From: Candidatus Woesebacteria bacterium GW2011_GWB1_39_12
GTDB lineage: Bacteria > Patescibacteriota > Microgenomatia > UBA8517
Assembly (NCBI GenBank): GCA_000993405.1
Contig: LBWB01000002.1
Coordinates: forward strand, 1-57,294
Length of the DNA stretch: 57,294 bases
Reading direction: 5' to 3'
A program made the position numbers and the translations under genes. Below are positions 1,259 through 37,300 of this stretch, piece by piece; the stretch's first letter is position 1, and each line of letters begins with the position of its first letter. The notes beneath the pieces were generated by a model. The model was not told the DNA's origin, did not search any database, and saw nothing but the letters and a program-made list of their open reading frames with translations.

Positions 1259-1260
1259 GT

Positions 1261-3485: not shown

Positions 3486-3553
3486 TGGTAAAAGGTAAAT
3501 GACAAATAAGGATTTTTAAAATTCCTTTACCATTTACCCCTTGCCTTTTACCT
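3486..3553. repeat. Inverted pair of 7-nt tandem repeats
   Basis: tggtaaa-aggtaaa-tgacaaa, then a spacer, then tttacca-tttaccc-cttgcct-tttacc; the arms are imperfect reverse complements. Confidence 0.7.
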
Positions 3554-3560
3554 AACTGTT

Positions 3561-4106: not shown

Positions 4107-4121
4107 AGACGGGCTTAAACC

Positions 4122-4808: not shown

Positions 4809-4815
4809 GAACAGT

Positions 4816-6229: not shown

Positions 6230-6243
6230 AAGTATAAATTAAT

Positions 6244-14845: not shown

Positions 14846-15982
14846 TCAATCGCACTTTCCGCCACTTAAAGTGCATTTGGTCCATTGATGAATTTCGTCC
14901 CAAGAATTATCTTTCGGAATAAATACATAAAGATTATCGTACTTCGGAGACTTGGGCGGATTAATTAAAAGAGTTTCCGACAAGATTGCCGACTTCATGT
15001 GATCTTTTGATTGAAGTGCACGGCGGGCAAGTATTGCACTAGCGCTCGGAGGAATATCTGTTTGGGTTGACTCAAGAACTGCATCTTTCAGAGCTTTTAG
15101 CTTTTTAGGAGAGAATAAAATCTCTTTACTTAAAACCTTTTCTTTTATTGCGGTTATCACCTTCTGTTGGCGAGCTTGACGAGCAAAATCGGTTCCTTCG
15201 TCTCCCTCGGCATTTCTCGACCTTACAAACTTGAGTGCGGTCTCTCCGCCCATAACTTGATTGCCCTGAGCGAAGTGAACAGTTTCATAACGACATTTAT
15301 AATCAGGGTCGCCATCACATTTATCATCTTCTTTTCCCGGAATAGGGTACTTCTCATCGGTAAAACTTCTTTCAACATCAACCTCGATTCCTCCCAGTAC
15401 GTCTATAATTTCCTTAAAACCCGAAAAGTCTATGACTAACGCGTAATGAACAGGAAGACCTACTATTTCTTCAACAGTCGACTTGGCAAGAATCATTCCA
15501 CCACCATCTTGTTTTTTATTTCCCCAATAATAAACGCTGTTTAGTTTTGTTCGAAGCTCAGGAATCCAGATATCCCGAGGCAGGGATATAAGATTAATTG
15601 AAGAATTCAAATGGCTTACCGATACAAAAATCATGGTATCTGTAAGGTCGGGTGCTTCGTGCGCAACGTCTCCTTTTCCCAATATGAGTATGTTTGTACG
15701 GTTGTTAATACTTTCTATCTTATCTCCCGGCGTAAAAATAAAATCTCTTGCCAAACCAAAATAAAAATCGGTTCCTGATTTTATTATTAAAGATTTTATT
15801 AATAAAAGTGCCAAAAAAAAGACCAAGATAACAGTCAAGATTATTCCGCTTCTAATTATCCAAACATGCTTTAGAAATCTTCGCTTAAACCTTGAAAAGA
15901 TCATCTTCCTCCTATCCATCTTTATTTCAGGCTTTAACTCTTCCTTAGCAAAAGAATTTTGTATCTCTTCTAACTCTTGCAT
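14846..15982 (-). CDS. LCP (LytR-CpsA-Psr) family glycopolymer transferase
   Basis: NILILG, LTDTM, SLPRD, FVRSR and DFARQARQQ motifs; single TM. Confidence 0.9.
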   Translation of the reverse strand: MQELEEIQNSFAKEELKPEIKMDRRKMIFSRFKRRFLKHVWIIRSGIILTVILVFFLALLLIKSLIIKSGTDFYFGLARDFIFTPGDKIESINNRTNILILGKGDVAHEAPDLTDTMIFVSVSHLNSSINLISLPRDIWIPELRTKLNSVYYWGNKKQDGGGMILAKSTVEEIVGLPVHYALVIDFSGFKEIIDVLGGIEVDVERSFTDEKYPIPGKEDDKCDGDPDYKCRYETVHFAQGNQVMGGETALKFVRSRNAEGDEGTDFARQARQQKVITAIKEKVLSKEILFSPKKLKALKDAVLESTQTDIPPSASAILARRALQSKDHMKSAILSETLLINPPKSPKYDNLYVFIPKDNSWDEIHQWTKCTLSGGKCD

Positions 15983-16003
15983 GCTAGAATTATATCAATT
16001 TCA

Positions 16004-17923
16004 ATGTCTATTGTATTTCACAAAACTAAATCCAACAACCTTCTTTCGAGCTTAAACAAAGAGCAAATCGAGGCCGTAACTTATGACGGCGGACCTCTTC
16101 TTGTTTTGGCCGGAGCAGGAAGTGGAAAAACTCGAGTCTTAACCCACAGAGTTGCCTGGTTTATCGGACAGGAAAAAGCTCGTCCTGAAAATATGCTCCT
16201 TCTAACATTTACTAATAAAGCCGCGGGAGAAATGAAAGACAGGGTTCTCAGATTAACACAACAAGCTCCGGCATTCGCTGGAACATTTCACTCATTTTGC
16301 GTAAGAGTTTTGAGAAAAAGCGGGAAATCAATCGATATAACACCCAACTTTTTAATTTATGACGATGATGATTCAAAAGAAGTTATAAAAGAAATTCTTA
16401 ATGAATTAAATCTTTCGCAAGATAAATATAATCCAAATGCGGTCGCTTCACAAATTTCAGAAGCAAAAAACCAAATGCTTACCCCGACTCAATATGCAGA
16501 GTTTATACGGGGCGAGTTTCAGGAAAAAGTTTTTAAGATTTGGAGCGAATATGAAAAACTTCTTAAAAAAACAGGAGCACTGGATTTCGACGATTTATTA
16601 TTAGAAACAGTGAAATTATTTGAAGATAGAAATGATGTGTTAAACCGCTGGCAGGAAGTCTTAACTCATATATTTGTTGATGAATGGCAGGACACTAATA
16701 AAGTTCAATATAAGTTGACCAGGCAACTTGTCGGAGCGAATGAAAATATTACTGCGGTTGGCGATGCGGCTCAATCGATCTACAGTTGGCGCGGTGCGGA
16801 TTATCGTAATATTAACCTCCTGATGAAGGATTATCCGAACATCAAAGTTATAAATTTGGAACAAAACTACCGTTCCACTCAAACAATTCTTGACGCAGCC
16901 AATTCAATAATCAAAAGAAATACCCAGCATCCCATCTTAAAACTCTGGACAAATAAAAACGGAGGGCAAAAAATAAAAATTTATAGAGCCAGAAGTGAAT
17001 TGGATGAAGCTTCTTTTGTACTTAACGAGATTGATAATTTAATTACCAAAGGACTTGAATTTCAAGATATTGTGATCCTGTACCGAACAAATGCTCAGTC
17101 GCGTGTTCTCGAAGAAGCCTTCTTACATGCAGGAATTCCTTATACCTTGGTCGGGGGAGTAAGATTTTATAGTAGAAAAGAAGTCAAAGACGTACTTTCA
17201 TATTTAAGGCTTTTGGTTAATTCTAAGGATACGGTTTCAAGGAAAAGAATTGAAAAACTTGGAAAAAGACAGCATGAGAAATTCAAAGTCTTTTCAAAAA
17301 AACTTTCTCAAGATTGGCAGGAAAAAGCAACAACATTGGACGTGATGGATGCGGTATTACAAGATACTGATTATCTTTCAAAATACAAAAGAGAGACTGA
17401 AGAAAATGTAACAAGACTCGAAAACATAAAAGAACTTCGCTCGGTTGCAACCGAATTTCCGAATATAAATGATTTTCTGGAAAATGTCGCACTCATTGAA
17501 GCAGAGCAGGATGAAAAAGGAAAAATTAAATCCCGAATCACTAATCACGAATTACCCAGTAACTCTGTTACGCTCATGACCCTCCATGCCGCTAAAGGCC
17601 TGGAGTTTCCGGCCGTTTTTATAGTCGGAATGGAAGAAGGGCTTTTCCCCCATTCAAGAAGTCTTTTTGATATGAACGAATTAGAGGAAGAACGAAGGCT
17701 TGCATATGTTGGAATAACCCGAGCAAAAGATATTCTTTATCTTACATATGCATCACGCCGCCTCTTCTTCGGACAGAGAACAAGTAATCCTCCGTCAAGA
17801 TTTATAATAGATATTCCGGAAAATCTGCTTGAAGGAGTTGAAGGCAGTTTTTCTGATTTTGATGTTAAAGACAAATTCGACACCGATTTCGCCGATGACG
17901 TCGACAACTCAATCAATTTTTAA
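16004..17923 (+). CDS. PcrA/UvrD superfamily 1 DNA helicase
   Basis: AGAGSGKT, TFTNKAA, VDEWQD, NYRS, TLHAAKGLEF and YVGITRA motifs; start moved to 16004 because the ORF-track start overlaps the divergent LCP gene. Confidence 0.9.
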   Translation: MSIVFHKTKSNNLLSSLNKEQIEAVTYDGGPLLVLAGAGSGKTRVLTHRVAWFIGQEKARPENMLLLTFTNKAAGEMKDRVLRLTQQAPAFAGTFHSFCVRVLRKSGKSIDITPNFLIYDDDDSKEVIKEILNELNLSQDKYNPNAVASQISEAKNQMLTPTQYAEFIRGEFQEKVFKIWSEYEKLLKKTGALDFDDLLLETVKLFEDRNDVLNRWQEVLTHIFVDEWQDTNKVQYKLTRQLVGANENITAVGDAAQSIYSWRGADYRNINLLMKDYPNIKVINLEQNYRSTQTILDAANSIIKRNTQHPILKLWTNKNGGQKIKIYRARSELDEASFVLNEIDNLITKGLEFQDIVILYRTNAQSRVLEEAFLHAGIPYTLVGGVRFYSRKEVKDVLSYLRLLVNSKDTVSRKRIEKLGKRQHEKFKVFSKKLSQDWQEKATTLDVMDAVLQDTDYLSKYKRETEENVTRLENIKELRSVATEFPNINDFLENVALIEAEQDEKGKIKSRITNHELPSNSVTLMTLHAAKGLEFPAVFIVGMEEGLFPHSRSLFDMNELEEERRLAYVGITRAKDILYLTYASRRLFFGQRTSNPPSRFIIDIPENLLEGVEGSFSDFDVKDKFDTDFADDVDNSINF

Positions 17924-19026
17924 TGGAAATAAAGAAAAATCCAGAAAAGAATAAAGAGACTCTTAGTAAGGCTTCTCCCCACCCACTTCAATCTCACGAG
18001 TGGGCGGAGTTTAGGAAGGCTTGGGGAAATGAGGTCTTGGAAACAAAATACGGAATAATTATTCTACATAAAATCCCTCTTACAAAATACAAAGTTGGAA
18101 TGTTTATAAAAGGACCAGTTCCCACCGCCAAAATGTTAGCCGACTTACGACAGATGGCTAAAAAAAATAACTTACTTTTTATCAAATTAGAACCGAATGT
18201 GGCGGTGGAATTTCCAATTTCCAAATCCCAAATTCCAAATAAATCCAAAATAACAAATCCCAATTTCAAAATACGATATTCGAAAGAAAAAGTTATAAAC
18301 TTACTCAAAGAAAACGGTTGTGTGCAGGGAAAAACTCTATTTACTCCAACCTCTTTTTGGATAGATCTTACTCCTTCCGAAGATGAATTATTGAAAAACT
18401 TTTCTTCCAAGACTCGTTACAACATCCGCTATGCCCAAAGAAAGGGGGTTGAAGTTGTTGAAGACAACTCCAATAAAGCATTTGAAAAATATATCGAGTT
18501 AACTCGGGAAACAGTCGAGCGGCAGGGATTTTACGCCCACACCGAATCCTACCATCGGTTAATGTGGAAATATTTACACCCCACTTCGCCAAGGCTTCGA
18601 GGGGCAAGCCAATCACTTGCCTCGCCAAAGCTTCCAAGCGAAGGCGGGCCAATTGCTCGCTTGCTTACCGCTAAATACAATGACGAAATTATTACTTGCT
18701 GGATTATCTTTGTTTATAAAGATTTCCTTTATTACCCTTATGGGGCATCTTCCGAAAAGTACAAAAACGTAATGGCAAATAACTTAATGATGTGGGAAGC
18801 AATTCGCTATGGTAAAAAATTAGGACTAAAAACTTTTGATCTTTGGGGAAGAGAGCCCGGCAAAGGTTTTACAAAATTCAAAGAAGGCTACAACCCGCAA
18901 GTTGTGGAATTTATCGGAACTTGGGACTTAGTAACATCTCCTTTATATTGGCCGTATAGGACCGCCGAATTCCTTCGTTGGCAAATCTTGAGAACTAAAA
19001 GCAAGTTTGTGGAACCAAAGTTCTAA
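17923..19026 (+). CDS. FemAB/FemX family peptidoglycan bridge aminoacyltransferase
   Basis: HPLQSHEWAEF, KTRYNIRYAQRKG, YPYGAS, FDLWG and FKEGY motifs; carries two repeat-derived insertions. Confidence 0.85.
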   Translation: MEIKKNPEKNKETLSKASPHPLQSHEWAEFRKAWGNEVLETKYGIIILHKIPLTKYKVGMFIKGPVPTAKMLADLRQMAKKNNLLFIKLEPNVAVEFPISKSQIPNKSKITNPNFKIRYSKEKVINLLKENGCVQGKTLFTPTSFWIDLTPSEDELLKNFSSKTRYNIRYAQRKGVEVVEDNSNKAFEKYIELTRETVERQGFYAHTESYHRLMWKYLHPTSPRLRGASQSLASPKLPSEGGPIARLLTAKYNDEIITCWIIFVYKDFLYYPYGASSEKYKNVMANNLMMWEAIRYGKKLGLKTFDLWGREPGKGFTKFKEGYNPQVVEFIGTWDLVTSPLYWPYRTAEFLRWQILRTKSKFVEPKF

Positions 19027-19067
19027 GAATTATGCAACAACTAAGTACTTAGGAACTAACCATTGGG

Positions 19068-19436
19068 TTATACCTCTTTGACAAAGGAGCTTACGACGTG
19101 TGCAGCAAGTCTTAGCTCACGTTCTGTATCCAAACCAAATGTTTTAGGGTCTTTCATATTTCCCCCCGAATCGTAATAAAGTGAGTCGACTGCTGGCTGC
19201 AGATCTGTGGATCCCAAAGCAACGCCTTCTAATCTCATTTTATCAACTTCTTTTTTAAATTTTGTAACCTCCCAAAGTAATTTGTTCGCTGTATCCTCTC
19301 CGACAAGTCGAGTAAGAGTCCAGTGAGCATCACCTAAAGCAATTTCTGCTTTAGCAGAACCATTATCTAGGCTTAGAACTCCCTCAAACCTATCAGGCAT
19401 TACCTCTATTTCAAAATCTTTATTATCATCTACCAT
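19068..19436 (-). CDS. Hypothetical protein
   Basis: Open ORF; likely start MVDDNK at 19436, 7 nt after TATAAT; lies antisense between two FemAB genes. Confidence 0.5.
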   Translation of the reverse strand: MVDDNKDFEIEVMPDRFEGVLSLDNGSAKAEIALGDAHWTLTRLVGEDTANKLLWEVTKFKKEVDKMRLEGVALGSTDLQPAVDSLYYDSGGNMKDPKTFGLDTERELRLAAHVVSSFVKEV

Positions 19437-19501
19437 AACATATATTATAAGCACAGCAACCCTTCTAAGCAATAACTGTTAAACTTGAAAGGGTTTAGTT
19501 C

Positions 19502-20440
19502 ATGATCGACCTAAGACAAACTTCCGACTATGCAAAATACATGTCTTCTATTGGTTGGATAGTCGAAAGAAAAGATGGAGTAAATTATTTTATCAAGAAA
19601 TTTCCTTTAATTGGCTCTTTTATCAAAATCCAGAGGCCTAAAAAAATAGATTTTGACCAAATAACCACAATCGCAAAAAAATATCGCGCTTTTCAAATAA
19701 TCATCGAACCTATCCTACCCGCCCGTTTCGGGTCCAAGAGCTGGTCCTCCGCCGGTATCCGGACCAATAATCATAACTTAATAATACTACAGGGTTATAA
19801 ACAAAGTAAATCCCCTTACTTGCCTTCCAAGACAATTTACATAGATTTAACAAAATCTGAAAAAGTACTACTCAAAGAGATGCACTACAAAACCCGTTAC
19901 AATATTAAAAAGGCTTCACAAAATTCAACGACGAAGTCGCCGAAGTTTTTCAAAATCCAAATTTCATATGATATCGAAAAATTTGCCGACTTCTGGCAGG
20001 AATGCGCAAGGAACCAGCGAGGAATGTTTTTGTCGCAAAAAAAAGAAATTATTGAACTTTACAAAGCTTTTGGGGAAAATGCACATCTTATTCTTGTATA
20101 CCACAAAGACACCTCCGAGGTGGCCGAAAGGACTCCTCGGATGGTGGAAAAGAGAGAATTAGTCTCAGGAATTTTAATGATAAGAACAAAAGACATTGCC
20201 TACTATATGTATGCAGCCGCGTCAGACGCGGGTAAAAAATTATTCGCGCCAACTTTATGTGCATGGGAAGCAATAAAGCTTTCTAAAAAACACGGATCGA
20301 AAATTTTCGATTTTGAAGGAATTTATGACGAACGCTTTCCTCTGAAAAGTTGGCACGGCTTCACCCGTTTCAAAAAATCCTTCGGAGGGCGCGAAATTGA
20401 ATACCCAGGTGCTTTTGTTAAATATCGAATCCCGATTTAG
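19502..20440 (+). CDS. FemAB/FemX family protein
   Basis: KTRYNIKKA, YYMYAA, FDFEGI and FKKSFGG motifs. Confidence 0.8.
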   Translation: MIDLRQTSDYAKYMSSIGWIVERKDGVNYFIKKFPLIGSFIKIQRPKKIDFDQITTIAKKYRAFQIIIEPILPARFGSKSWSSAGIRTNNHNLIILQGYKQSKSPYLPSKTIYIDLTKSEKVLLKEMHYKTRYNIKKASQNSTTKSPKFFKIQISYDIEKFADFWQECARNQRGMFLSQKKEIIELYKAFGENAHLILVYHKDTSEVAERTPRMVEKRELVSGILMIRTKDIAYYMYAAASDAGKKLFAPTLCAWEAIKLSKKHGSKIFDFEGIYDERFPLKSWHGFTRFKKSFGGREIEYPGAFVKYRIPI

Positions 20441-20451
20441 AATGATGAAAG

Positions 20452-20730
20452 ATGAAAAACATGAGAAGAATTGAAAAGAAGGCATGGTCGGAATTATTCG
20501 AAAAAGTCAGAACAGGCGAAAAAACGTTTGACTTAAGGTTAGACGACTTCAGATGTAAAGTAGGAGACATCCTAATTCTTCGTGAATGGAACCCAAAAGA
20601 GAAAAAATATACGGGTAGAGTTTTAGAGAGAAAAGTTACTTTTGTACTTAAATCGAAAGATGTTTTAAAGTTCTGGTCAGAAGAAGAAATTGCAAAACAC
20701 GGCTTTCAGGTAATTGCCTTTAAAAAATAG
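20452..20730 (+). CDS. ASCH/PUA-like (DUF3850-type) protein
   Basis: GEKTFDLRLDD...VGDILILREW...YTGR pattern. Confidence 0.7.
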   Translation: MKNMRRIEKKAWSELFEKVRTGEKTFDLRLDDFRCKVGDILILREWNPKEKKYTGRVLERKVTFVLKSKDVLKFWSEEEIAKHGFQVIAFKK

Positions 20731-20738
20731 TTTTCGCC

Positions 20739-21413
20739 ATGAATTACGATCAAGTCATTAGTAAATTAAAATCTTTGAAAAATCCCAAAAACGTCGAGGG
20801 GATGGCAAGGTTTGGAATAAACTCGAAAAATACTCTGGGGATTTCAATTTATGATCTTCGACCTCTTGCTAAACAAATAGGCAAAAACCACCAACTTGCT
20901 TTACAACTCTGGAAATCGAAAATTCATGAGGCACGAATCTTAGCTTCATACATTGAAGAACCTGAAAAAGTAACTGACTCTCAGTTGGAGAGTTGGGTTT
21001 CTGACTTTGACTCTTGGGACGTTGTTGACCAAGTTAGCGAACTCATTGCCAAAACACCATATGTAATCAAGAAAATCAAGGATTGGTCGAATCGGAAAAA
21101 GGAATTTGTCAAACGGGCCGCCTTTGCACTTATTGCCGAAATTGCATGGCATGACAAAACAATGAGAGATAGCGAGTTTGAACAATTCTTTCCCTTGATT
21201 AAAAAAGCGGCCACGGATGAGCGAAACTTTGTTAGAAAAGCTGTCAATTGGGCATTAAGAAATATTGGCAAACGCAATAAAACCCTAAACAAACAGGCTA
21301 TTGATGTGGCGAAGGAGTTGGCTGAATCCGAAGATAAAACTGCAAAATGGATTGCCAAAGATGCTCTTCGTGAATTAACAAGCGAAAAAATTCAAAACAG
21401 GCTAAAAACTTAA
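20739..21413 (+). CDS. AlkD-like DNA alkylation repair protein (HEAT-repeat)
   Basis: HEARILA, FDSWDVVD, DERNFVRKAVNWALRNIGKR. Confidence 0.85.
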   Translation: MNYDQVISKLKSLKNPKNVEGMARFGINSKNTLGISIYDLRPLAKQIGKNHQLALQLWKSKIHEARILASYIEEPEKVTDSQLESWVSDFDSWDVVDQVSELIAKTPYVIKKIKDWSNRKKEFVKRAAFALIAEIAWHDKTMRDSEFEQFFPLIKKAATDERNFVRKAVNWALRNIGKRNKTLNKQAIDVAKELAESEDKTAKWIAKDALRELTSEKIQNRLKT

Positions 21414-21446
21414 TTAATATATATTATTTAAGTAGCGCTATAAATC

Positions 21447-21986
21447 ATGAATTTTGTAAGCATTTTTTACACAATTCGATTTCTCTTTTATTTAATTCTT
21501 CCTGAGAAATATCGCTTTTTCCCAGACGCTGGAACTATTCTGATGCAAATGGATATTTTTTTGTCTTCTGTTGCAGGAATAATTATTGCCGGAACATTGA
21601 CAAGCTCCAAGATTAATCCACAAAGGGCTAAAAAATTACTTCTGATCCCTCCTTTAATTTTGGTATTACCGGGTTTTTTAGTCTTCCCATTTTTAGTTGT
21701 TAATCGACAATGGAGTGAGCTAGTGAAATCTTCAATTGGTATGTTCGACTTGCTTTTCTTCATGTATAGCATATCGTTTTCACTCCTTTTACCCTATCTA
21801 ATAATGAGTAGTTTCAAATCTTCAAAACAGGTCTTTTTATATTCGACCGTGATGCTTATTGTCGGTATGATAAGTGTAATTTGGATTAAACCTGGCAACA
21901 TATTTTTTGAATTTGTCCATAATGTTCCTTTCATACTTGCCTCTATATTAACTGGTAGAAATTTTAAAAAGGTTCGACGCCTTTAG
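21447..21986 (+). CDS. Hypothetical multi-pass membrane protein
   Basis: 179 aa, mostly hydrophobic segments. Confidence 0.55.
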   Translation: MNFVSIFYTIRFLFYLILPEKYRFFPDAGTILMQMDIFLSSVAGIIIAGTLTSSKINPQRAKKLLLIPPLILVLPGFLVFPFLVVNRQWSELVKSSIGMFDLLFFMYSISFSLLLPYLIMSSFKSSKQVFLYSTVMLIVGMISVIWIKPGNIFFEFVHNVPFILASILTGRNFKKVRRL

Positions 21987-22054
21987 AAGAAGAGGAATCT
22001 CTATATTCGCCTTGCAAGGAGAAATCTTTAAATACAGTTGTGCAATCTATTTTA

Positions 22055-22186
22055 TTACTTATCACTCCTGCAAAATAGTTTATACTCACAATTTTCGCAG
22101 AGCATACTGCCGGAGCATTTGAAGTCGCTCTCTTCGATTTGTTTTTTATAATCTTCAATCATTTTTTTTGCTTCTTCCAATTCTTC
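22055..22186 (-). pseudogene. Orphan duplicate 3' tail of the helicase-nuclease gene
   Basis: Translates to EELEEAKKMIEDYKKQIEESDFKCSGSMLCENCEYKLFCRSDK*, homologous to the C-terminus encoded at 22778-22912. Confidence 0.9.
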
Positions 22187-22340
22187 CTTTAGGTAGCATA
22201 AAATCTCCAAATTTCTTATCTCTTATAAAAGCAATAAATAACCTCTCCTTTTTCTTTCTAACAACCGCCCCACCCGCTGATACAGAAGTGGGGAAATTTT
22301 TGTCTTTTGGTTTAATATACCAACTTTCGTCAATTTTCAT
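22155..22340 (-). pseudogene. Truncated NUDIX hydrolase (5' part only)
   Basis: SAGGAVV...LPKGRI stops before the Nudix box; sequence switches to the helicase-tail duplicate at about 22186; GGAGG SD before ATG 22340. Confidence 0.8.
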
Positions 22341-22341
22341 A

Positions 22342-22764
22342 TTAAACATTCCTCCAAATCTTCCTGAGTTCTTTTAGAGCGCTTTGATAAGAACTACAAA
22401 ATAAATATGGAAAACTCGACAAATGCTTAGCCCTCTTCTCGAAATCAAAAATTTCTTTGTTTCTTTTAAGATATTTAAATTGCTCTCTGTTTGCTAAAAG
22501 TTCGCTCTCTAATCTTACTTTTGGAAAGATCCAATATCTTAATCCCTGTATCAACCAATTACCACTACTTATTTGCTCTAAATGAGTTCTTTCATGAATC
22601 AGTACACCCACACTTTCTGGTTTCGGTTTATCTTTATATAAATCATTGTATATATCCGGCCGAAGATATATTTTATTTGCAAAAACGAAACCTTTAAAAA
22701 TTTTGCTTAATGGAAAAACTGATTTTTTAATTTCGTATTTTGACTCTTTTATATAATTACTCAT
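22342..22764 (-). CDS. Hypothetical protein with HExxH zincin-like motif
   Basis: VLIHERTHLEQ. Confidence 0.6.
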   Translation of the reverse strand: MSNYIKESKYEIKKSVFPLSKIFKGFVFANKIYLRPDIYNDLYKDKPKPESVGVLIHERTHLEQISSGNWLIQGLRYWIFPKVRLESELLANREQFKYLKRNKEIFDFEKRAKHLSSFPYLFCSSYQSALKELRKIWRNV

Positions 22765-22777
22765 TTATTAACCATGT

Positions 22778-25693
22778 TTAATCACTTCTACAAAATAATT
22801 TATATTCACATTCTTGTTCATCGCAAAGGTAACCGTGCGAGCATTTAAAGTCCGATTCCTCAATTTGTTTTTTATAATCTTCAATCATTTTTCTTGCTTC
22901 TTCCAATTCTTCTTTCGTCCGAGTGGTTGTAACAATCTGTGGTGTATCAAAATACATTAAAGAAAGTTTTACTTTCTCGGGCTTTCTATCAAAAGGAAAC
23001 TCCAGTATCGATGTTGCGGCTAAACCATAAATAGAAAGCTGCAAATCTTTTTCCGCCTCGTTTTGAGATAGAGGAGTTGCGCCCGTTTTATAATCGATAA
23101 TTTCCAATTCATCACCATGAACATCAACCCTGTCAATTTTACCGCCAGCTCTTAGATTATTGAGTCGGATCATGAATGATTGCTCCAAAGCAACGGGCTT
23201 TATTTTCGGGTCAAAAAAATTGTCCAAATAATATTTTAAAAATCTTTTTGCTTTATCAAAAGAACTTTCCTCATGCGATTTACTTAGGTAACCTTCTCTG
23301 ATCCAGTTTTCTTCAAGAGTTTTATAGATTAAATCGACGGTTGGCTTTTGTCCCTGACCGATTTTCTCGTAAAAAGTTTTCATTGTTAGATGAAAAGAAT
23401 TACCAAAACTTTGTGAAGAAGTTGGTGGAGTCGGAAGCTTATAAATATATTTTAATTTAAAGTGAAGGGGACAAATTCGGAAGGTTTCAATTTGAGAATA
23501 GGAAAGATAATCAATGTGCAATGGTGTACGGTGTACGGTAATCGGTGTACTGACAGAGAGGGGCCGGTAATCCAAAAACGATAACTGTTCACTCTTTACT
23601 GTCGACTGTTCACTAGCAATTGCTTCCTCCCCCAGAGCTTCAAAAATAAACGGTGATAACTTTTTTTCGCGCTTTCCCTCTCCATAATAATCCGCTGCGG
23701 TAAAGAAAAGCTTGTCTTTTGCTCTCGTCATGCCGACATAAAAAAGTCTTCTTTCTTCTTGAAGATGAAAGTCACCTACAGGTAAAACTTCTTTGATAAG
23801 CTCATCCGGAATAGGGATTTGTTCCCTTCTTTCAATTGTCGGGAAGCGCTGCGACACAAGGTTTACTAAAAAAACAACGGGAAACTCGAGCCCTTTGGCA
23901 GAATGAACTGTTAAAATATTCACAGCGTTTTCTTTGGTCCAGTCAATGTCTGCTGCCAACGGAGATTCACCAAGCTCTGAAGAAAGTTCTATCCAATCAG
24001 TAACCGCTCCAATGGTAGCGTCTTCATGATCAACTTCATAAGTTTTTAACTTGTCAAAAAGTTTCGAAACATTTAACGCTCTTTTTTCTGCTTCCGGTGT
24101 ATCGGGGTTAAGAAGTTTTTGAATTAGCCCCGCATCTTCAAGAAAATAGTACAAGAGCTGCCCGGCGGTTTCTTTCTTAACTAGTTTTAGATGCTTTTCA
24201 ATTATCCCTATTATTTTTTTAACTTTTTCCTTCGTTTCATTACCTATGTAAATATCTTCTGTTTTTTCACACGCCTCAAAAAGGCTTAAGTTAAACCGTC
24301 TTGCATAATTTGCAATTCGTATCAGATCTTTCGCTTCTATACCAAAATAGTCAATCGATAAAACACGATAAAAAGAAACGGAGTCATCAAAGTCATTAAG
24401 CACTTTTAAATAAGAAAGTAGATCAATTATTTCCGGCTGCCTAAAAAGTCTTCCGGGTCCCAAAAACTGATAGGGGATATTGTGACGGGACAATGCCCGT
24501 ATAAAAGGTTCGGAATGATTATTTGCCCTGACTAAAATTGCAAAATCTTTCCATACATATTTTTCTTCGTCACTTAATCGCTTAATCACTTTAGCCACCT
24601 CCTCCGCCTCGTTTTCGACTCGGTCTTTATGAATGAAGATAACCTGCTCGCCGCCCTTGGGGTTTCTAACACTTACCAAATTTTTATCTATTCCCAATTT
24701 ATCTTCCAAAGTATCAGGTGCGTTGTGACGGATCAGTTTATAAGCCGGATCCAAAATTGCCTGTAGCGAGCGGTAGTTCCTGATTAAAATCACCGTTTTT
24801 ACATTTTTGTAATCTTTCTGAAAATACAAAATATTGGAAATGGCAGCTCCCCTAAATTTATATATTGACTGCGAGTCATCACCAACTACGGTAAGATTTA
24901 CTTTTTTTGATGGTGGCACAAGAAGTTTTAACAATTCATATTGTGCGACATTTGTATCCTGAAATTCATCAACCAATACATATTTAAACAGTTTTTTATA
25001 TTTTTCCAAAACATTCGGTCGCATTCTGAAAAGTTGCAGTACTTCAGTTATTAAATCTCCAAAATCCATCACCCCTTCCTTTACTTTCAGCTCTTCATAC
25101 TTCTTATATGCACTCGCTAATTCTTCCCATTTGTCTAATTCAATTACTTCTTCCTTGCTTTGCTCTTTGTTCTTTGCTCTTTGTTCTACCCAGCGAATAT
25201 ATTCGCTTGGGTTTATATCCTCGTCTTGAAGACGAGAAAAATGCTGAATCATCCCACCAATAAACTTTGTCGGGTTTCCTAGAGGTCTGAAATAATTAAG
25301 TTCAAATTTAAAAAGATTGTGGCGGATCAATTGGATAGTTTCCGCCTCAGTCATTAATTTATATCGGGGATCAATGCCTATGTTAAGGGAGGAGTCGCGT
25401 AAGACGCGATCGCAGAAAGAATGAAACGTCGAAATCCACATTTGGGTATAGCCATAGGGCATTGCCACATCAACCCTCTCTTCCATCTCCAAAGCTGCTT
25501 TCTCGGTAAAAGTTAGGGCTAAAATTTCCGAAGGTTTGGCTAAGTTCTTCTCTATCAGATACTTAATCCGCTCTGTTATAACGGTAGTCTTTCCGGTCCC
25601 CGCCCCCGCAATAATTAAAAGAGGCCCACTTTTGTGTCTAACCGCCAATACTTGTTCTTCGTTTAATTTTTTACCTGAAGCTTTTGCTGCCAC
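22778..25693 (-). CDS. UvrD-type helicase fused to a C-terminal PD-(D/E)XK nuclease (AddA/AdnAB-like)
   Basis: SF1 motifs (AGAGTGKT, VDEFQD, SAKGLEF); nuclease LSYSQI..CP, GKIDRVD, IIDYKTG; terminal Cys cluster consistent with an Fe-S ligand set. Confidence 0.88.
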   Translation of the reverse strand: MAAKASGKKLNEEQVLAVRHKSGPLLIIAGAGTGKTTVITERIKYLIEKNLAKPSEILALTFTEKAALEMEERVDVAMPYGYTQMWISTFHSFCDRVLRDSSLNIGIDPRYKLMTEAETIQLIRHNLFKFELNYFRPLGNPTKFIGGMIQHFSRLQDEDINPSEYIRWVEQRAKNKEQSKEEVIELDKWEELASAYKKYEELKVKEGVMDFGDLITEVLQLFRMRPNVLEKYKKLFKYVLVDEFQDTNVAQYELLKLLVPPSKKVNLTVVGDDSQSIYKFRGAAISNILYFQKDYKNVKTVILIRNYRSLQAILDPAYKLIRHNAPDTLEDKLGIDKNLVSVRNPKGGEQVIFIHKDRVENEAEEVAKVIKRLSDEEKYVWKDFAILVRANNHSEPFIRALSRHNIPYQFLGPGRLFRQPEIIDLLSYLKVLNDFDDSVSFYRVLSIDYFGIEAKDLIRIANYARRFNLSLFEACEKTEDIYIGNETKEKVKKIIGIIEKHLKLVKKETAGQLLYYFLEDAGLIQKLLNPDTPEAEKRALNVSKLFDKLKTYEVDHEDATIGAVTDWIELSSELGESPLAADIDWTKENAVNILTVHSAKGLEFPVVFLVNLVSQRFPTIERREQIPIPDELIKEVLPVGDFHLQEERRLFYVGMTRAKDKLFFTAADYYGEGKREKKLSPFIFEALGEEAIASEQSTVKSEQLSFLDYRPLSVSTPITVHRTPLHIDYLSYSQIETFRICPLHFKLKYIYKLPTPPTSSQSFGNSFHLTMKTFYEKIGQGQKPTVDLIYKTLEENWIREGYLSKSHEESSFDKAKRFLKYYLDNFFDPKIKPVALEQSFMIRLNNLRAGGKIDRVDVHGDELEIIDYKTGATPLSQNEAEKDLQLSIYGLAATSILEFPFDRKPEKVKLSLMYFDTPQIVTTTRTKEELEEARKMIEDYKKQIEESDFKCSHGYLCDEQECEYKLFCRSD

Positions 25694-25746
25694 GAAGCAA
25701 TTTTACCATTTTTCATTAATTTTATGGTCAGAATATCAAAATCAAT

Positions 25747-26313
25747 CTAAGCTTCTTGCTTGCCTTTTAATAAAGTTTCAACGACCTCCCTTGGTAAAGA
25801 CGCTGCCGAAAGAAGTGCGTTCTTTACGGTTTGTGCAGTCTCTCCTCCAACTTCATCTGCGACTTTTACTACTCCTAAAATTGCACCTTTTGCAGCATCA
25901 GTCGTATCTTGCCCGAGGTTACCTGCTGTTTCAATTGCCGCTTCAACTGCAGAAACGGCAACATTTGCCACATCTCCTCCGACTTCAGCTACTCCTTTTA
26001 CAGCACCGGATGCAGCTTGACTAACTGCCTCCATCACGTCTCCTCCGGCTTCAGCTACTCCACTTATTGCCGCACTCACCGAATTTTTGGCCACATCAAC
26101 AACCGAAACTCCAAGTTTTGAAGCACTATTTACAGCACCGGCAACGGTATCGGAAACAACACTCATTAAGGCTCCTGTTCCTTCGCTTACGTCTTTAAGA
26201 GATCCTAGAACCTGATTTTTTACAGCACCGCGAAGAGCTGATAAGACGTCATCTGTTCCTTTTACTGCGGAAACTAAAGTATTACTTATTTCCTCAACAA
26301 CTTTTGATAACAT
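25747..26313 (-). CDS. Ala/Val/Gly-rich helical repeat protein (22-aa period)
   Basis: Strong SD (AGGAGGTG); consecutive 22-residue units ending in G. Confidence 0.7.
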   Translation of the reverse strand: MLSKVVEEISNTLVSAVKGTDDVLSALRGAVKNQVLGSLKDVSEGTGALMSVVSDTVAGAVNSASKLGVSVVDVAKNSVSAAISGVAEAGGDVMEAVSQAASGAVKGVAEVGGDVANVAVSAVEAAIETAGNLGQDTTDAAKGAILGVVKVADEVGGETAQTVKNALLSAASLPREVVETLLKGKQEA

Positions 26314-26348
26314 TATTTCTCACCTCCTTTATATTCACTATACCATTT

Positions 26349-27326
26349 CTAGTCTTCAAGTTGTCTGATATTTTTTTCAGTCTTTTCTTCAAGGGATCGA
26401 GTAGAAGTAATTTTTTGACCAAGTTGAGTAAAGCTTGATAAAACACTGCTCATTGTATTAAAAGCATTAGTTAGGTGTTTCTGAAGAACAGAAAGGGTAT
26501 CACCAACTTTACCATAGTCTTTTTGAATTGCCCGAAGGGCAGCTAAAATTTCTCGAGCCTGGGCTTCTATTTTTTGGCCTTCAAAGCTCATTAAAATCGC
26601 CCGCATGAATGCATAAAAAGTTGTAGGGGACACAGGGAGTACTCTTTTCTCACCCGCATATTCAAAAAGATCTTGGTTATTTACAACCTCGTAATAAACG
26701 GCTTCGCTTGGAATATACATCAGTGCATAATCAATCGTCCCTTCCTCTGTCAGAATATATTTCCTGCTTATATCGGCTATGTGCTTTTTAACGTTCCCCT
26801 CAAATTCACGGGCATGCAACTTCTTTTCAGAATCATCTTTAGATCCGGACATCTTTCTGAAATTTTCCATCGGGAACTTTGAGTCGATGGGAATAATCCC
26901 AGCGGTTGTTTTTATTGCCGCGTCGACTTTCTCGCCCGATTTAAACGTATATTGCAAATGAAAAGATTGCTTTGGAAGCATTTGGGCTAACAGCTCTTTT
27001 AAAACTTGTTCTCCGATGTTTCCCCTAAGTTTTGGACTTTTTAAAAACTCCTGAAGCTCTTTCATTCCTCTGCCGATTTCACTCATTTCACCAATACTTC
27101 TTTGAACTTCTCCTATTACTCTTGCTGCATTGTCTAATCTCTCGTTAAAAGATTTACTCTGTTCGTTTAAACGAACATTTGTTGTTTTTAAATATTCTAA
27201 AAGTTCATCAGTTGGTTTTTGTTTTTCTAAAAGGGCTGATAGTCGTCTATTAATAAACAAGCCTAGAAGGAGCAGGCCTACCACTACAATTATAATTAAA
27301 ACTGTCGGATCCATATTAACTGTCAT
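26349..27326 (-). CDS. rmuC: RmuC family DNA recombination protein
   Basis: N-terminal TM, coiled coil, RGNIGE, PIDSKFP and DYALMYIPSEAVY motifs. Confidence 0.88.
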   Translation of the reverse strand: MTVNMDPTVLIIIVVVGLLLLGLFINRRLSALLEKQKPTDELLEYLKTTNVRLNEQSKSFNERLDNAARVIGEVQRSIGEMSEIGRGMKELQEFLKSPKLRGNIGEQVLKELLAQMLPKQSFHLQYTFKSGEKVDAAIKTTAGIIPIDSKFPMENFRKMSGSKDDSEKKLHAREFEGNVKKHIADISRKYILTEEGTIDYALMYIPSEAVYYEVVNNQDLFEYAGEKRVLPVSPTTFYAFMRAILMSFEGQKIEAQAREILAALRAIQKDYGKVGDTLSVLQKHLTNAFNTMSSVLSSFTQLGQKITSTRSLEEKTEKNIRQLED

Positions 27327-31330: not shown

Positions 31331-34300
31331 TCACTCAACTACTTCCATCCAACCGCCGCTTGAGTGTCCCGATATGTCGGGAATATACATATTGTAAGCT
31401 TGGGCGGGCGGATGGTGATATCGACCTGGGGTTGTCGGTCTTACTCTATAAGTATATTCGTATACTCCAGTGGGAAGAGTCTCGGCAAAAAGGACAACTC
31501 TGTCATCTCTAATCTCGTTGTGTCTGAAATAAAGCGGACTTCTATCTTTGGGAATTTTGAGTCTTTCGACATTAAGAAGAGATGTTGTTGCTAGACTCTC
31601 ATTAACAGCCTCAACACCCGCCGGGAGTTTGTCCTCGACAATTACATGGTGAGTCGTTGCGGGAGTTAAGATAATTAACCTAACCCAAAGTTCGCCTCCT
31701 GCCTCAAGAGTCTCTTTTTCAAACACCTTCCCGTTTCTATCAATGAACTCTCGAATAACAACAATGCCCGCGTCTTGTGGTTCAACCTCCTCAAAAGGTA
31801 AGAAATAGCGAAGATTCATGTTGTAATAAAGTGCTCCTTTCCCACTTTTTTGAATCTTAACTGGAATATCTTTCTCTTTTACCAAGGTATCAAGCGATAT
31901 ATCTTCGGTAATTTGCTTAAAGAGATCTTGTGATTCAAACTTCCCCTCTTTTCGCAAAATGTTATTGACCAAAATCTGCCAACCGTACTTTGGTTTACCC
32001 TCACGTCGAGCCTGTTGCATTATCACAATTGCGCGAACCGCGGAAGATGTTTCTCTTGTTGTTTGCCAATGTCCATCGTAACGAGCCTGCATTAGCCAGC
32101 GCGTAATGTCGGGAATAAGAGTGTGTCTTGGATTTTGGGCAACAATTGCCTCAAGCATAACAGATGTAAGAGTGGTGTCTGAACTCATCATATACCACTC
32201 TCGCTTTTTGAGTTCCCAATGCGCTGTTGTATTTGTCTTCTCGACTAAAGAGATCATTTCATCCATTAATCTAAACTGGTCTTTTTTACTAACACCCACG
32301 CTCTGAAGTGCCCGCAAAAGATGTGCCCTACCCAACTCATTCATTTGCCAACGTCTATCCATTAGAAAACTTAAAACACCGGAGTCAACTTTTTGCGCGC
32401 GGGAAATAATTGCGGCTAAATAGGCTTGAGTTTCTAGAGATTCCTTACCTGAGCTAAGCTTTTGTTTAAGATAGCCTGAAGCTCTCTCGATAACAGAATC
32501 CGATACGCTAAACCCTTGCTTTTTCACATCCAAAAGACCGTCCATTACCATTGCAGTCAAATAGGTATTGGACTCGTAACTGACACACCAACCCCAACCG
32601 CCGTCTGGCCGTTGTGTATTAGTCAACCGCTGAATCCCATCACTAACAATACCTTCTAAAGACTTTTTCTCGTATCCACCTACTCTATCCAGACCCGTCT
32701 CTTTTGCGAGAGTAAGAAGGTGAACTGCAGGAACAACCCTGTTTATTACTTGTTCATTACAGTAGTAAGGAAACGATAAAAGATAGTTAGCCGCATCTTC
32801 AACTCCAGAGCCCAACGTCGCGGATAAACTTATATCTAAACTCCCTAAATCAGGCACTATATCTTTTGGCAAATAAATCTTTTCCTCCGCAACGTCTTTT
32901 GCTTCACCTGATGTGGCTACCACTTCAGGGGTAAAGTAAGAAATAACAGGAAGCTTTATTTTCACCGCATCAGAAAATCCGCTACTTCCCTCTGCTTTAA
33001 GTAAAACCATTGCCTCACTCGAATTTTCTACCTCAGTCTCCCAATAAATGTTTTGTGAACTATTGGCGGGAATATTGAGAGTTTTTCTTTTGTCGTCCAA
33101 TACCTTAATTCCTTCCAGAGAAATCTCAACGATAACACTTGAGGAACTCGCGGTGTTATTATGGACAACCATTCCAAGTTTGGGTTTATCACCAACACTC
33201 AAAAAGCGAGGCAAAAGAGGTTGAATCAAGACATCCTTGGTTACAAGTACCTTCTTGACAGCATCTCCTACTCCTGTTTCGCGACTTACCGCAATTCCCA
33301 CAAGTCTCCAAGTCGTTAAATTATCAGGCAAATTCACACTAAACTCTGCGCGTCCATTGTCGTCGGTTTCAATGTGTGCATTCCAATAAGCAGTATCCAG
33401 AAATTTTTCTCTGGTAGTCTCGGGTCCTCCTTCTCCACCGCCTCCTCCAGATCCACCTTTTGCGCCTAGGTTAACGTTTGCATTTATCCTATCCATAGAA
33501 ATGGTCAAGTCATTCGCTGTTAAAACCGAGAGATTTCTTGGACGATAAAAAGTCTTGTGAATATCGGCTAAGTTTGCTCTTGCTAAACTCCAAACAGCCT
33601 CGTCAACCAAGGCAACCGCAACTTCTGTTTTGACATTTACACCATTTCCGTCTTTTGTGGTTAAATTTACCTTCATTTCCTCTCCAGGACTGAAGCGCTC
33701 TTTGTTGGGAGAAAGATCAAGTGTTACTTTTGTCTTGGGGTTATCAACGCGAATCTCGGAAATTCCCATTTTAAACTGTGGGGGGTCTTTTACCTCGACT
33801 CCTGCCTTCACAAATACACCAGCTATAAATGCATTCGGGGAATACCTTTCTTTAATTGGAACGCTAAAGGACTGATTTTCGGGCGTTATCTTAACAACCT
33901 TGTAGTCAAACACGCTCCCCCTTTCAACAGTAACTAAAGCAGTCATTTGCTCATAAGGAAGTGGGGCAACAACATTTGCTTCCTCGCCAATCTTATATTC
34001 CTGCTTATCTGGAACCAAAACTACTCTATCGTGATTTTCCTGGGGAACATCAACCCCCGATCCCGAAACCCAAAGGTAAGTTGCGGATTTTGTAACTCGG
34101 CCTTTATCGTCGCTTGCTTCCGCAACAGCACGAAAACTTCCGCCTTCAGGTGGAACAAATGATGCGATGGCTCTGCCAAATTCGCCAGTAACTACGTCGA
34201 GTGAGGTAACAAAAATGTCTATTGATTTATTTACCCAATAAAACTCTCCCGTTTCTTTATCCTCTTCCCTGACATAATCCCAAGTTCTTTTGTAAAAAGA

Positions 34301-37300
34301 TACTTTAACTGGAATATTCGGTAATTCATCTCCGGCAATTCCCACCGACACGATCTCAACTCGACTCTCTTGTCCGGATCTACCCGAATATCTTTCGGGC
34401 TTTAAGCCAACATGCAATCCCGCCTGATGAATTGCGAAGTCTTTGGAATTTGCAATTGCTTGATTGCTAACGTCCGTCACAATTGCCTCAAGCCGCATTC
34501 TCTGGTTCGTGTTTTTGTCAGAAATATTAACCGGAATTTTTACCTCAAAATGGCCGTCTTTGTCGGTTGTTCCAGTACCATCCGCTACCTTCTCACCCGA
34601 ATAATAGAAATAATCTTGGTAGCTCCACCAAGGTCTATACCAATAACTATCTGCGTCTCCAAATTCAAAACGCACATCCTTGTGCCAACGAAAGGGGTCA
34701 TCTTGTGTTGTCAGAGTCCACTTAACTGGGGCGTGGTCAACCGGCGAGCCAAAGAAAAACTTTGAGTCGATGAAAGCTTTTACGGTTTCGCCATCTGCGT
34801 AGGCGGATTTGTCGGTTGTTACCTCAACTGAAAAATCAGGTTTTCTGTATTCCTCTACCTGAAACTGCTGGGAAAAACCATTACCAAGAATGTTGGCACT
34901 AATCTTGTAATAGCCGACTGAGCCCTCAGGAGATAAAGTAAACGACCCTGAAAATGTTCCATAAGAGGAAAGTTTTGAATTTTCAGAAATAACGGAGCGC
35001 CCTTGGGCATCGGTAACACTTATCTGAACCTGGTCTTTTTCGTCCAATAAAGTATATACTCCATCGTTATCTCGCCTGACAACTCCCTTGTAATAAACGG
35101 TTTGTCCTGGTCTATATATTGGTCTATCAAGAACGATGTGGATTTTGAGCTGTTCCTTGGCTTGATAGAAATCTGACTCCTGAGGATCGTAGTAGCTCTC
35201 CAATCCAAACTCGTAGGGCCTTATTCCTCCCTGCCAGATATCAATAACAACGGCCTCATCACCATCCTTCCTGGCGAAAGCAAAAAGAGGATTTGAGGTA
35301 TCGGCGTAAGTGTTTCTTGGAGAGCGAACTTCATAGTCGGTCATAAATACGCCATCTTGATTTGTTTTCCCTTTTTTAACAACATTCCCTGAAAGCCTTG
35401 AAAGTTCTATTTCCAAATCTTTTACAACTTCGCCGCTTATCTGGTCAACCGCCCAGACAAAAGCCTGGTTGGGCGAGGTTTTTAGAGTCAAAGAAGTCCG
35501 GGAGATAACCATCACCAGATTATCGTGTCTACCACCTCCAATGCTGGCGTCCAGAAAGTAAAAACCCGAGGGAATCTTTTCATCTGACCCCTTTTCAACT
35601 TTGGTAATAACGTGTACGGGAACGTCCTTGTCGGCATCAAAGACCTCTTTCCACTCCCTGACAAGTTCGTGTTTCGAGGGGTCATATTTTTGAAAATTTC
35701 TCTCTTGGTTATCGTTGCTAGTGTAATGAATTCGATGAAGATTCAAAAAGTCGGCTCGGGTTAGTTTGTACAATTTATATATAACCTCGTTTACATTGAC
35801 CACCTTAACCACAATTCGTGGAACTATTTCTTGATTAAAGCTGGCAAAATAAGTGTCGGAGGGAACAATTGATATACTTGGTTTAAAAGGCGCGGTTTTA
35901 AAGGAAAAAGTATAGTCTTTCCCCAAAGGCACTCCATATTGATCTCGGACATTGCCAGAAATTGTAATGGTGAAGTTTGTTGAGCGATTTAGATACGTAC
36001 CAATGGAAAGAGTATGTTCATCTCTGTAGCTGGAAAAATAGGTAGAAGGGTTTCTTTCGGGTGTTGGAGAAATAGAAACATTATCTTTAAAAGATTTCTC
36101 ACTCATTGGAGAAACAAAGTGGATAACTATCCTATGTTGCTCGTCCACATTTTCACTAGCGTCTTTCGGCTCGGTGCTAATGATTTTTGGTAACGGGGCA
36201 GTCTTAAATCTCCAAGAATACGTGCTTTCGAGTCCATTTTCTCCCTCTGTCGACAAGAGACCTGCGTCAATTTGAGCCTCATACCAAATTTCTCTTTGCA
36301 AAGGTTTTATTGAATAGATTCCTACCTGTTGTTTATCTACTCGTACGTTTACTGGAACTTCTTCCTTACTCACTCCCTCAACCTTGAAGAGGTGAAAGGA
36401 CTCACTAGCAGACTTTACATTAATGGGTAAATTAAGGGTTGCAGAAACTGAAGCTGTAGGGCTTGCAAAGTTGTAATTTACAGTAGGTGTCGTTGCTAAA
36501 ACTCTCGGTCTTTGAGTTGAAAATGAAAATACTGCATCTTCCTGGAGCTCTCCATTATCCTTTGCCTTAATCCCAGCAGGAACCCTGTATGTGTAGGTAG
36601 TTGCATTTTTCAGAGGTTCACTAGGGCGGAATTGATAAGCTGTTGTCCCAAGCCAGCGCCCTTCTCCTTTAATCTCGGGCGTAATTGTAAATGCAGGAAG
36701 CTGCCTTTCTTTTTCGTCCAAAGTGGTTAGTGGAATCATCGGTCTATCAAACATAACTGTTATGGGGTTGTTTGCTTCGGGTGCTTCAGTTTGAGGGCTT
36801 GCCAAAAGAACTACCGGGTGCCCCAACGTCTCAAAAACAAAAGTGTGGGTTTTGAGCTTGGGTATAAAAAAAGAGGATAAGTTAAACGAACCAAGTTTTA
36901 CAGCGTATTTTTGAGCAATAGAGAAAGGTTCATTGGGTTTATAAACAAACTTGGCATCACCCAACCACTCAAATTTACCAGAAATCGAAGGCGAGATAGA
37001 AAATGATTTTTCGACAGATCCCTTATTCATGCCGCGATCAAACTGTACCTCAATCGTTGAATCAAGGGGGATTCTTTCTCCTCCCTCACCCGGGAAAGTA
37101 ACAACAATTCTCGGAGGTAAAAAATAGTGGCCATAAAGGATAATAAAAAGGAAAATTACTCCGATAATTACCGGGGTTCTTATCATTCTTACTCTTTCCT
37201 CTCTTGAAGAGATTTTAAATTTTTGCAGCCACGCTTGTACTTTATGTAGAACTCTTAGAGCCAGCGGTTTTACCTTCTCTAAAAATTTCTGCCCTAATAA

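Follow-up and report, generated by a model that had tools for sequence, protein, structure and literature searches.

A helicase tail present twice

The end of a helicase-nuclease gene is found twice on the minus strand of contig LBWB01000002.1 of Candidatus Woesebacteria bacterium GW2011_GWB1_39_12, and the locus that holds both copies (22055-25693) is the subject of this work. All coordinates are those of the analysed stretch of 57,294 nt, here called the window. The intact gene (22778-25693, minus strand) encodes a protein of 971 aa in which a superfamily 1 (SF1) helicase of the PcrA/UvrD type is joined to a C-terminal PD-(D/E)XK nuclease domain and a cysteine cluster. Its Pfam matches are UvrD-helicase (3e-77), UvrD_C (5e-54) and PDDEXK_1 (8e-36, residues 730-969); its NCBIfam matches, pcrA and others, stay under the equivalog cut-offs, and no solved structure was matched by the sequence of the nuclease domain. 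The last 135 nt or so of the gene (22778-22915, minus strand) are present again at 22055-22189. A repeat finder (family D1) and an alignment agree on one direct repeat, 22095-22189 against 22821-22915, with 82% identity over 95 nt, and the repeat finder gives the tail repeat as the sole long repeat between 20000 and 26000. The repeat reaches both stop codons, at 22055 and 22778. The duplicated tail named in a preliminary description of this DNA is thus real.

The comparison below uses about 125 related loci of Woesebacteria and other Microgenomates that hold orthologues of the helicase: 80 loci from a scan with one genome per species, and 44 metagenome loci from a scan with NUDIX alignment. 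The two copies of the tail, the working one at the end of the helicase (copy B) and the stranded one (copy A), fall into two parts. The first 50-53 nt, here called the core, encode KEELEEA[R/K]KMIEDYKKQI and are identical at 49 of 50 positions. The remaining 82-85 nt agree at only 56 of 79-88 positions (64-71%), with many synonymous differences and a 6-nt indel that gives CENC in copy A and CDEQEC in copy B. Homology between the copies ends exactly at the stop codons and at 22186-22189. In copy B the core (22863-22915) encodes KEELEEARKMIEDYKKQI and is native-like, with 50 of 53 positions shared with the related locus L011; its xenologous 3' part (22778-22862) ends in ESDFKCSHGYLCDEQECEYKLFCRSD before the stop and has the cysteine spacing CX4CX5C. 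In copy A the core (22137-22189) shares 48 of 53 positions with L011, and the 3' part (22055-22136), of native type, ends in ESDFKCSGSMLCENCEYKLFCRSDK with the canonical spacing CX2CX5C. Past the core, copy A reads CSGSMLCENCEYKLFCRSDK and copy B CSHGYLCDEQECEYKLFCRSD before the stop. Copy A has no frameshift and its frame is unbroken, with no helicase body upstream; by itself it gives a weak PDDEXK_1 match over the last 41 profile positions (E=0.043).

What lies between the two cores? The 726 nt hold just two reading frames, both on the minus strand. The first (22342-22764), between the helicase and the second frame, encodes 140 aa with an HExxH motif, HERTH, and has a weak, sub-threshold Pfam match to DUF6782; from the motif and this match only, a zinc-metallopeptidase fold is suggested, and the product may be a small accessory metallopeptidase. 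An exhaustive HMMER search placed it in a family of uncharacterised proteins of about 140 aa with 168 clusters at E<=1e-3, and the first impression of a near-unique gene was dropped on that result. The idea that such genes stand beside the helicase as a rule was also rejected, since the four family members that were looked up sit in variable islands of small accessory genes. Among the related loci the gene is missing from all save L091, where a family member (P0002, 56-57% identical) starts at the stop codon of a helicase tail.

The second frame is an open reading frame (ORF) of 64 aa (22155-22349). Its first 55 residues or so align with the full-length NUDIX proteins (PF00293) of the relatives as far as MLPKG, and past this point the ORF enters the tail core out of frame and then stops. 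The NUDIX part proper (22182-22340) has about 53 codons, MKIDESWY...MLPKGR. It keeps the 5' third of the gene and stops at LPKG(R), where the relatives continue ...E.GE...REI.EETGL; the whole Nudix box (GX5EX7REUXEEXGU) is absent. The fragment has no Pfam match, and full-length relatives match PF00293. Word-indexed protein searches with the stub and with tail B also gave no match, an effect of their prefilter and no sign that homologues are missing. The 64-aa ORF is a truncated NUDIX pseudogene. The gene had been called decapitated, which reverses the case, as it lost its 3' two thirds and kept its 5' end.

Beyond copy A a 68-nt spacer (21987-22054) leads to a convergent gene for a 179-aa membrane protein (21447-21986, plus strand) that flanks the locus. 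The spacer holds no recognisable remnant: blastn and tblastx against locus L092 and all other loci gave chance-level hits only, with nothing of a NUDIX 3' part or of a nitroreductase gene. PHROGs and NCBIfam gave no match for the HExxH protein or the membrane protein, and a promoter and terminator scan gave a signal no better than shuffled sequence.

Related loci and the mixed affinities of the segments

The backbone of the region in the relatives is rmuC-(orf188)-helicase, a variable spot, and then (alkylation repair), DUF3850 and femAB on the opposite strand. The commonest filling of the spot is a NUDIX gene directly after the helicase, in 6 of the 80 genome loci and in 20 or more metagenome loci; the stop codon of the one often overlaps the start codon of the other. 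Judged from this distribution, helicase followed by NUDIX is the ancestral order. With this adjacency ancestral, the NUDIX gene was probably not brought in with foreign DNA as had been proposed. Because several lineages wedge other genes between helicase and NUDIX, such as a gene for a 184-aa membrane protein in L013, a ComB-like gene with a toxin-antitoxin pair in L107, and a gene for a 204-aa protein in L118, the boundary is an insertion hot spot. An antitoxin/toxin-like pair (80 and 87 aa) occurs directly downstream of the helicase region in two species, at L017:2815-3321 and L107:4485-4991 with 77% nucleotide identity, and is a further mobile cassette at this hot spot.

In this region L092 (Ga0214473_10000680) is the nearest relative. 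Its order is helicase with a tail of the copy A type (...CSRSMLCETCEYKLFCRSDEK before the stop), an intact NUDIX gene of 162 aa, and then, on the opposite strand, a nitroreductase-like gene, the homologue of the 179-aa protein, and the alkylation repair gene. In shorthand, the helicase body is H and its core c, and the tail ends of copies A and B are a and b; X stands for the HExxH gene, N for NUDIX and N' for its stub, R for the nitroreductase-like gene and M for the membrane protein gene. The order of the L092 type is then H-c-a-N-R-M, and that of the window is H-c-[b-X]-N'-[c-a]-M. The L092 homologue of the membrane protein (5973-6503) is 78% identical in amino acids and is its only homologue; the first 200 nt of the gene are L092-like at 85-95%, and the rest at 58-70%. 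Counted with the neighbouring alkylation-repair gene, the patch 21447-21660 stands at 85-95% identity to L092 against 58-75% for the remainder, which suggests the recent exchange of a short patch, or else unusual constraint. The L092 helicase orthologue (1006-5004, 1332 aa) also carries an intein of about 360 aa after ...VGDDSQ (C...VVHN/S; Pfam Intein_splicing 2e-12 and a Hint match), which the window helicase does not have.

Where did the end of the working helicase come from? Up to the core the gene is like L092, L011 and L017 (82-93% nucleotide identity). Its last 80 nt or so are like L107, L118 and L108 at 83-90%, and like L092 and L011 at only 57-63%. A maximum chi-square test with L011 and L107 as parents put the break 77-81 nt before the stop codon (permutation p<0.0005): the 157 informative sites upstream of it divide into 111 that agree with L011 and 46 with L107, and the 18 downstream into 3 with L011 and 15 with L107. 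On this evidence the last 80 nt or so are xenologous, in line with the preliminary description, and the foreign tract begins just past the 50-nt core. The tail type of copy B, CSHGYLCDE[Q/E/M]EC, occurs as a natural allele elsewhere, in at least 8 loci (L104, L107-L111, L117, L118). Copy A is of the type carried by the nearest relatives, L011, L017, L092 and L099. Its 3' part matches L011 at 66 of 82 positions (80%), L017 at 78% and L092 at 62 of 82 (76%), and a blastn alignment of 22190-22069 with L011 has 90% identity over 122 nt. A serine codon is AGC in copy A and in L011 and TCN elsewhere, which is a minor point since L104 has AGT. The stranded copy is thus the native-type tail, and here too the preliminary description held.

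The NUDIX fragment goes with a different set of relatives from the end of copy B. It matches the intact L092 gene at 143 of 155 nt (91-92%) and the L107 gene at about 66%, and its homology to L092 begins exactly at the start codon and ends at ...AAAGGAAGA. Because of this identity to L092 the fragment is native or near-native, from a source other than that of tail B. It is also closer to L092 than is the 3' region of the helicase (576 of 717; Fisher p=0.0003), which argues for a separate history of the stub. The cores add one more constraint. They differ from each other at 1 of 50 positions, and L011, L017 and L092 differ from them and from one another at 3-10 positions. The window cores are thus closer than those of any two species compared, so the partners in the junction would be the same genome or very close relatives.

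A core that is near-identical at both ends of an insert, beside a diverged replacement 3' end and with the original tail stranded at the far end, recalls integration. Could an integrative element that targets the helicase 3' end have left it, or a small circle inserted there in Campbell fashion, either one bringing the replacement end, with the cores as attL and attR? The insert is only some 590 nt; a check of it and its flanks found no integrase, recombinase or mobile-element gene; and its distal part consists of NUDIX, broken off midway, a gene that neighbours the helicase on the chromosome anyway. A second tail is present in 0 of the roughly 125 related loci, and a scan of 136 sequences found it in the window species only, with no recurrent use of the site. 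The core is moreover conserved between species as ordinary coding sequence. We consider integration very improbable.

The mixed affinities continue into the helicase body. When the gene (22778-25693) was compared with L011-L019, L036 and L077, the nearest relative was L011 for residues 1-60 and 721-960, and L012 and L014-L016 for residues 61-360. This points to repeated intragenic recombination between Woesebacteria species. Likewise L011 and L107 are collinear at about 71% nucleotide identity (helicase, ComB-like gene, a protein of about 1010 aa) and have the last codons ...FCKVDG in common before the stop, yet their tails are of the CX2C and CX4C types; the swapping of short patches within the tail seems not to depend on the genes that follow. 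The region as a whole is a patchwork of short tracts exchanged among co-occurring Woesebacteria.

The junction and how it may have arisen

Is the junction real? The window species is a groundwater member of the Woesebacteria (Microgenomates, Patescibacteria), represented by GCA_000993365.1 and many metagenomes. Contigs with exact proteins were drawn from ENA, NCBI, JGI and Logan assemblies. Every contig with the exact HExxH protein or the exact 179-aa protein (24 contigs read per search) has the order of helicase, 140-aa, 64-aa and 179-aa genes, and ten of them are 99.8-100% identical to the window across 21400-23400. Logan contigs from separate runs cross 22186 and the whole insert with zero differences, and contigs of four further runs (X9, X10, X13, X19) compared with L092 have the same joint, which "goes back 285". 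No scar-free conspecific variant was found among contigs with the exact 179-aa protein or in contig joints. The scar is fixed in the window species. An assembly chimera that fused two strains or species across the conserved tail had to be considered, since those samples also contain an L011-like species with a tail like copy A, and the conserved core is a place where Logan contigs break. The 50-nt repeat core is likely shorter than one read, and contigs span 22186 or the insert (X1, 21400-22911; X5, 22093-22693; X13, 22098-22604). As the same structure recurs in more than 20 independent contigs of different samples, assemblers and archives, the chance of a chimera is negligible.

The joint itself lies at 22182-22186 on the minus strand, in a stretch common to the NUDIX gene and the start of the tail core. 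As proxy for the NUDIX parent we used L092, 98% identical over the last 50 nt. With a slash at the joint, the NUDIX parent reads ...CCTAAAGGAAGA/GTGGAAG, the helicase core parent ...ACGAAAGAAGA/ATTGGAAG, and the window product ...CCTAAAGGAAGA/ATTGGAAG. Common to both parents is a perfect GAAGA, or 7 of 8 nt in AA[G/A]GAAGA (acgAAAGAAGA/attggaag against CCTAAAGGAAGA/gtggaag). A short microhomology is thus present where the NUDIX gene breaks, as the preliminary description had noticed. The shared stretch is shorter than its figure of 12-13 nt, which was partly circular because the product had been compared with one of its own parents.

A joint of this type can also be made inside one genome. A tandem duplication of about 285 nt (tail core, tail 3' part, NUDIX 5' part), by slippage or unequal exchange at GAAGA in the L092-like order, yields exactly this fusion of NUDIX 5' part and core, as "goes back 285" implies. 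The first tail 3' part would later have been replaced by tail B and the HExxH gene through homologous recombination, and the second NUDIX gene and the nitroreductase gene deleted. The near-identical cores and the native type of both the NUDIX fragment and copy A agree with such a route, and the duplication would have been neutral on arising, leaving both the helicase and a NUDIX gene intact beside a junk junction. It asks, however, for three events in succession, the intermediate being an unstable direct repeat of 285 nt, and for a deletion whose ends fall precisely at the stop codon of copy A and at the end of the 21447 gene and that left no trace. The units now differ in content and the second has no intact NUDIX gene; the fragment is more L092-like than copy A (143 of 155 against 113 of 138, p=0.008) though the two would have been one contiguous block. 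No relative has a duplication; the preliminary description had named a tandem duplication followed by deletion in relatives as a finding that would refute it. We hold this intragenomic route to be unlikely.

How many events are needed? The 3' part of tail B is like L107 and L118, while the NUDIX fragment 420 nt away is like L092, so at least two recombination events are needed, and not the one donor piece of the preliminary description. In that version a relative's fragment with helicase, HExxH gene and intact NUDIX gene replaced the helicase 3' end, by a homologous crossover in the helicase body and a microhomology joint to the start of the resident tail, where the resident had the helicase (ending RSDK) directly before the 21447 gene. 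Such an event would have a simple topology and cost no gene its function; the native type of the stranded copy and the presence of the microhomology agree with it; and HExxH follows a helicase tail in L091, as NUDIX follows the helicase in many relatives. But given the two affinities the donor must itself have been a recent mosaic, and, with the helicase native-like up to the core and the cores 1 in 50 apart, it must have been of almost the same lineage. Where a homologue of the 21447 gene is known, in one locus only, NUDIX and nitroreductase genes separate it from the helicase, and neither the predicted donor nor the predicted resident arrangement was found in the related loci or in 24 conspecific contigs. 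A single event is therefore improbable, in our judgement.

The reading that we favour, with a confidence slightly above even, is that of a recombination scar with no function, left at a variable spot by two or more events, of which the second was homology-facilitated illegitimate recombination (HFIR) between close genomes. The start, as the relatives show, was a helicase with a CX2C tail of putative Fe-S type followed by a NUDIX gene, with nitroreductase and membrane protein genes on the opposite strand. In the first event, which the comparison of sequences shows, DNA of another Woesebacteria lineage replaced the last 80 nt or so of the helicase with the CX4C allele type. Tail b and the HExxH gene take up precisely the stretch from the core to the NUDIX start codon, and the gene probably came with the tail swap. 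In the second event, an illegitimate join at the purine microhomology of 5-8 nt (GAAGA) fused NUDIX codon 53 or so to the start of a native-type tail; the locus now lacks the nitroreductase gene and the last two thirds of NUDIX. HFIR would make this join between very close genomes that differed at the hot spot, by homologous recombination at one end and through the microhomology at the other. The simplest pair of variants is H-c-b-X-N... and H-c-a-M, and either could have been the recipient. That the second event was of HFIR type, with both polarities and the version of the preliminary description counted together, is somewhat more likely than not, and no other origin of the junction is as likely as an HFIR-like event, as that description had it; a lesser share of the probability goes to unclassified routes. 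The NUDIX stub and the stranded tail are pseudogene debris, whereas the helicase itself is still whole, now with the new tail. Unbroken reading frames and the core identity of 49/50 suggest that the event was probably recent.

Several points weigh against this reading. Neither presumed parental arrangement was found among the related loci and 24 conspecific contigs, so the order and number of events had to be inferred. Whatever the route, it takes about three steps to get from the L092-like order to that of the window (the swap of tail and HExxH, the loss of NUDIX 3' part and nitroreductase, and the join), and no intermediate was found among the examined loci. The nearest relatives are only 70-80% identical, and the affinities of segments of 82-155 nt rest on few sites; for the 3' part of copy A the margin among the candidates L011, L017 and L092 (80%, 78% and 76%) is small. 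The near-identity of the cores could reflect later gene conversion or conservation at the nucleotide level, as L011 has 92-94% identity there, and a perfect microhomology of 5 nt is weak evidence alone in a purine-rich, AT-rich genome. Finally, DNA uptake by Woesebacteria is only plausible. The preliminary description had taken the locus for a fossil of natural transformation, consistent with pilus genes in the window; a PilN-domain ORF (3561-4106) is indeed above the Pfam cut-off and a PilO match (4122-4808) is weak, and the tie to transformation is circumstantial. Among bacteria of the candidate phyla radiation (CPR), competence has been shown for Saccharibacteria (PMC10633639), not for Woesebacteria.

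A bolder idea is that the helicase 3' end is a dedicated exchange site of Woesebacteria, at which two conserved nucleotide blocks, the 50-nt core and a CEYKLFC block, serve as anchors for swapping cassettes and tails. If true, lineages would swap downstream accessory cassettes and alternative Fe-S-cluster tails (CX2C, CX3C, CX4C), and the direct repeats, 49/50 identical, could still excise the HExxH cassette and restore the native tail, so that the window locus would be reversible, with two states. We regard this idea as quite unlikely.

Wider setting, meaning and known systems

DNA-repair genes cluster around the scar (15977-27326): besides the helicase-nuclease and the NUDIX stub there are RmuC (26349-27326) and an AlkD-like DNA_alkylation gene (20739-21413), with two FemAB-family genes amid the cluster. 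A DUF3850/ASCH gene (20452-20730) and a second UvrD-type helicase that has no nuclease domain (15977-17923) belong to it as well, and an HhH-GPD glycosylase lies farther off (40167-40817). In the gap between RmuC and the helicase a 188-aa protein rich in Ala, Val and Gly (25747-26313) is repetitive and belongs to no Pfam family; its PHROGs matches to tape-measure proteins are at chance level only, and it is conserved in L011 (84%) and in L036 and L116 (61%). Another large gene (31331-37429) encodes an alpha-2-macroglobulin-like protein of 2032 aa (Big_5, MG2, A2M and TED in the public annotation of the same contig), adjoined by a class A penicillin-binding protein gene (37434-39692).

What does the scar mean? 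It is genuine and of an ordinary kind, illegitimate recombination at a hot spot, with no new mechanism or function. Natural, well-preserved scars of illegitimate recombination in which both parental sequence types can still be read are rarely documented. We know of no such scar described in uncultivated CPR bacteria or Patescibacteria, whose recombination biology is almost unknown. The locus offers direct sequence evidence that co-occurring Woesebacteria exchange short patches of DNA and that gene content changes readily at the boundary of helicase and NUDIX, and it shows that the spacing of the cysteine cluster in the nuclease tail tolerates allele swaps.

HFIR is known from natural transformation in Acinetobacter baylyi, Streptococcus pneumoniae and Pseudomonas stutzeri. 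In these systems, as summarised in PMC6382021, the joins occur at microhomologies of 3-10 bp. The window resembles them in having variant DNA beside a homologous gene, here the L107-like 3' part of tail B and the HExxH gene, in a joint with one end at a microhomology of that size between the parental sequences (the L092 NUDIX gene and the helicase core), and in the loss of sequence that relatives hold. A further mark of HFIR is a homologous anchor on one side only, with a donor tract that runs unbroken to the joint; in the window both flanks are homologous to relatives and the segments in between are of mixed affinity. Unlike classical HFIR, a simple replacement with deletion, the joint lies at the start of the would-be anchor and gives a 50-nt duplication; also unlike those systems, there is no known pair of donor and recipient, and at least two events are superimposed.

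Phage 21 and the element e14 at icd of E. coli offer a second parallel, in which a prophage brings a replacement 3' end and leaves a stranded icd' pseudogene. The window gene likewise ends in an imported, synonymously diverged 3' end, with the original as a pseudogene past the insert and near-identical cores. It differs in having no integrase or prophage, in an insert of about 590 nt that includes a truncated chromosomal neighbour, and in being a one-off and not a recurrent site.

A third parallel is found in the merodiploids and many-kilobase tandem duplications generated by transformation (PMC3784515), and more generally in tandem duplication mediated by microhomology. The joint of NUDIX 5' part and tail core is of the duplication type and the core copies are near-identical. 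Unlike in those duplications, the units are no longer alike, HExxH being in one and the downstream copy having no NUDIX gene, and the scale is 0.3-0.7 kb.

As for the protein, a PD-(D/E)XK domain that ends in a C...CX2CX5C cluster is the mark of AddB/Cas4-type Fe-S nucleases. By sequence such an arrangement is present here, as both tails encode a cysteine cluster at the end of PDDEXK_1 and that of copy A is canonical. Unlike that type, the working tail has CX4CX5C and other relatives have CX3C; the Fe-S cluster is a putative one; and unlike AddAB, the window protein is a single-chain helicase-nuclease of the UvrD/PcrA kind.

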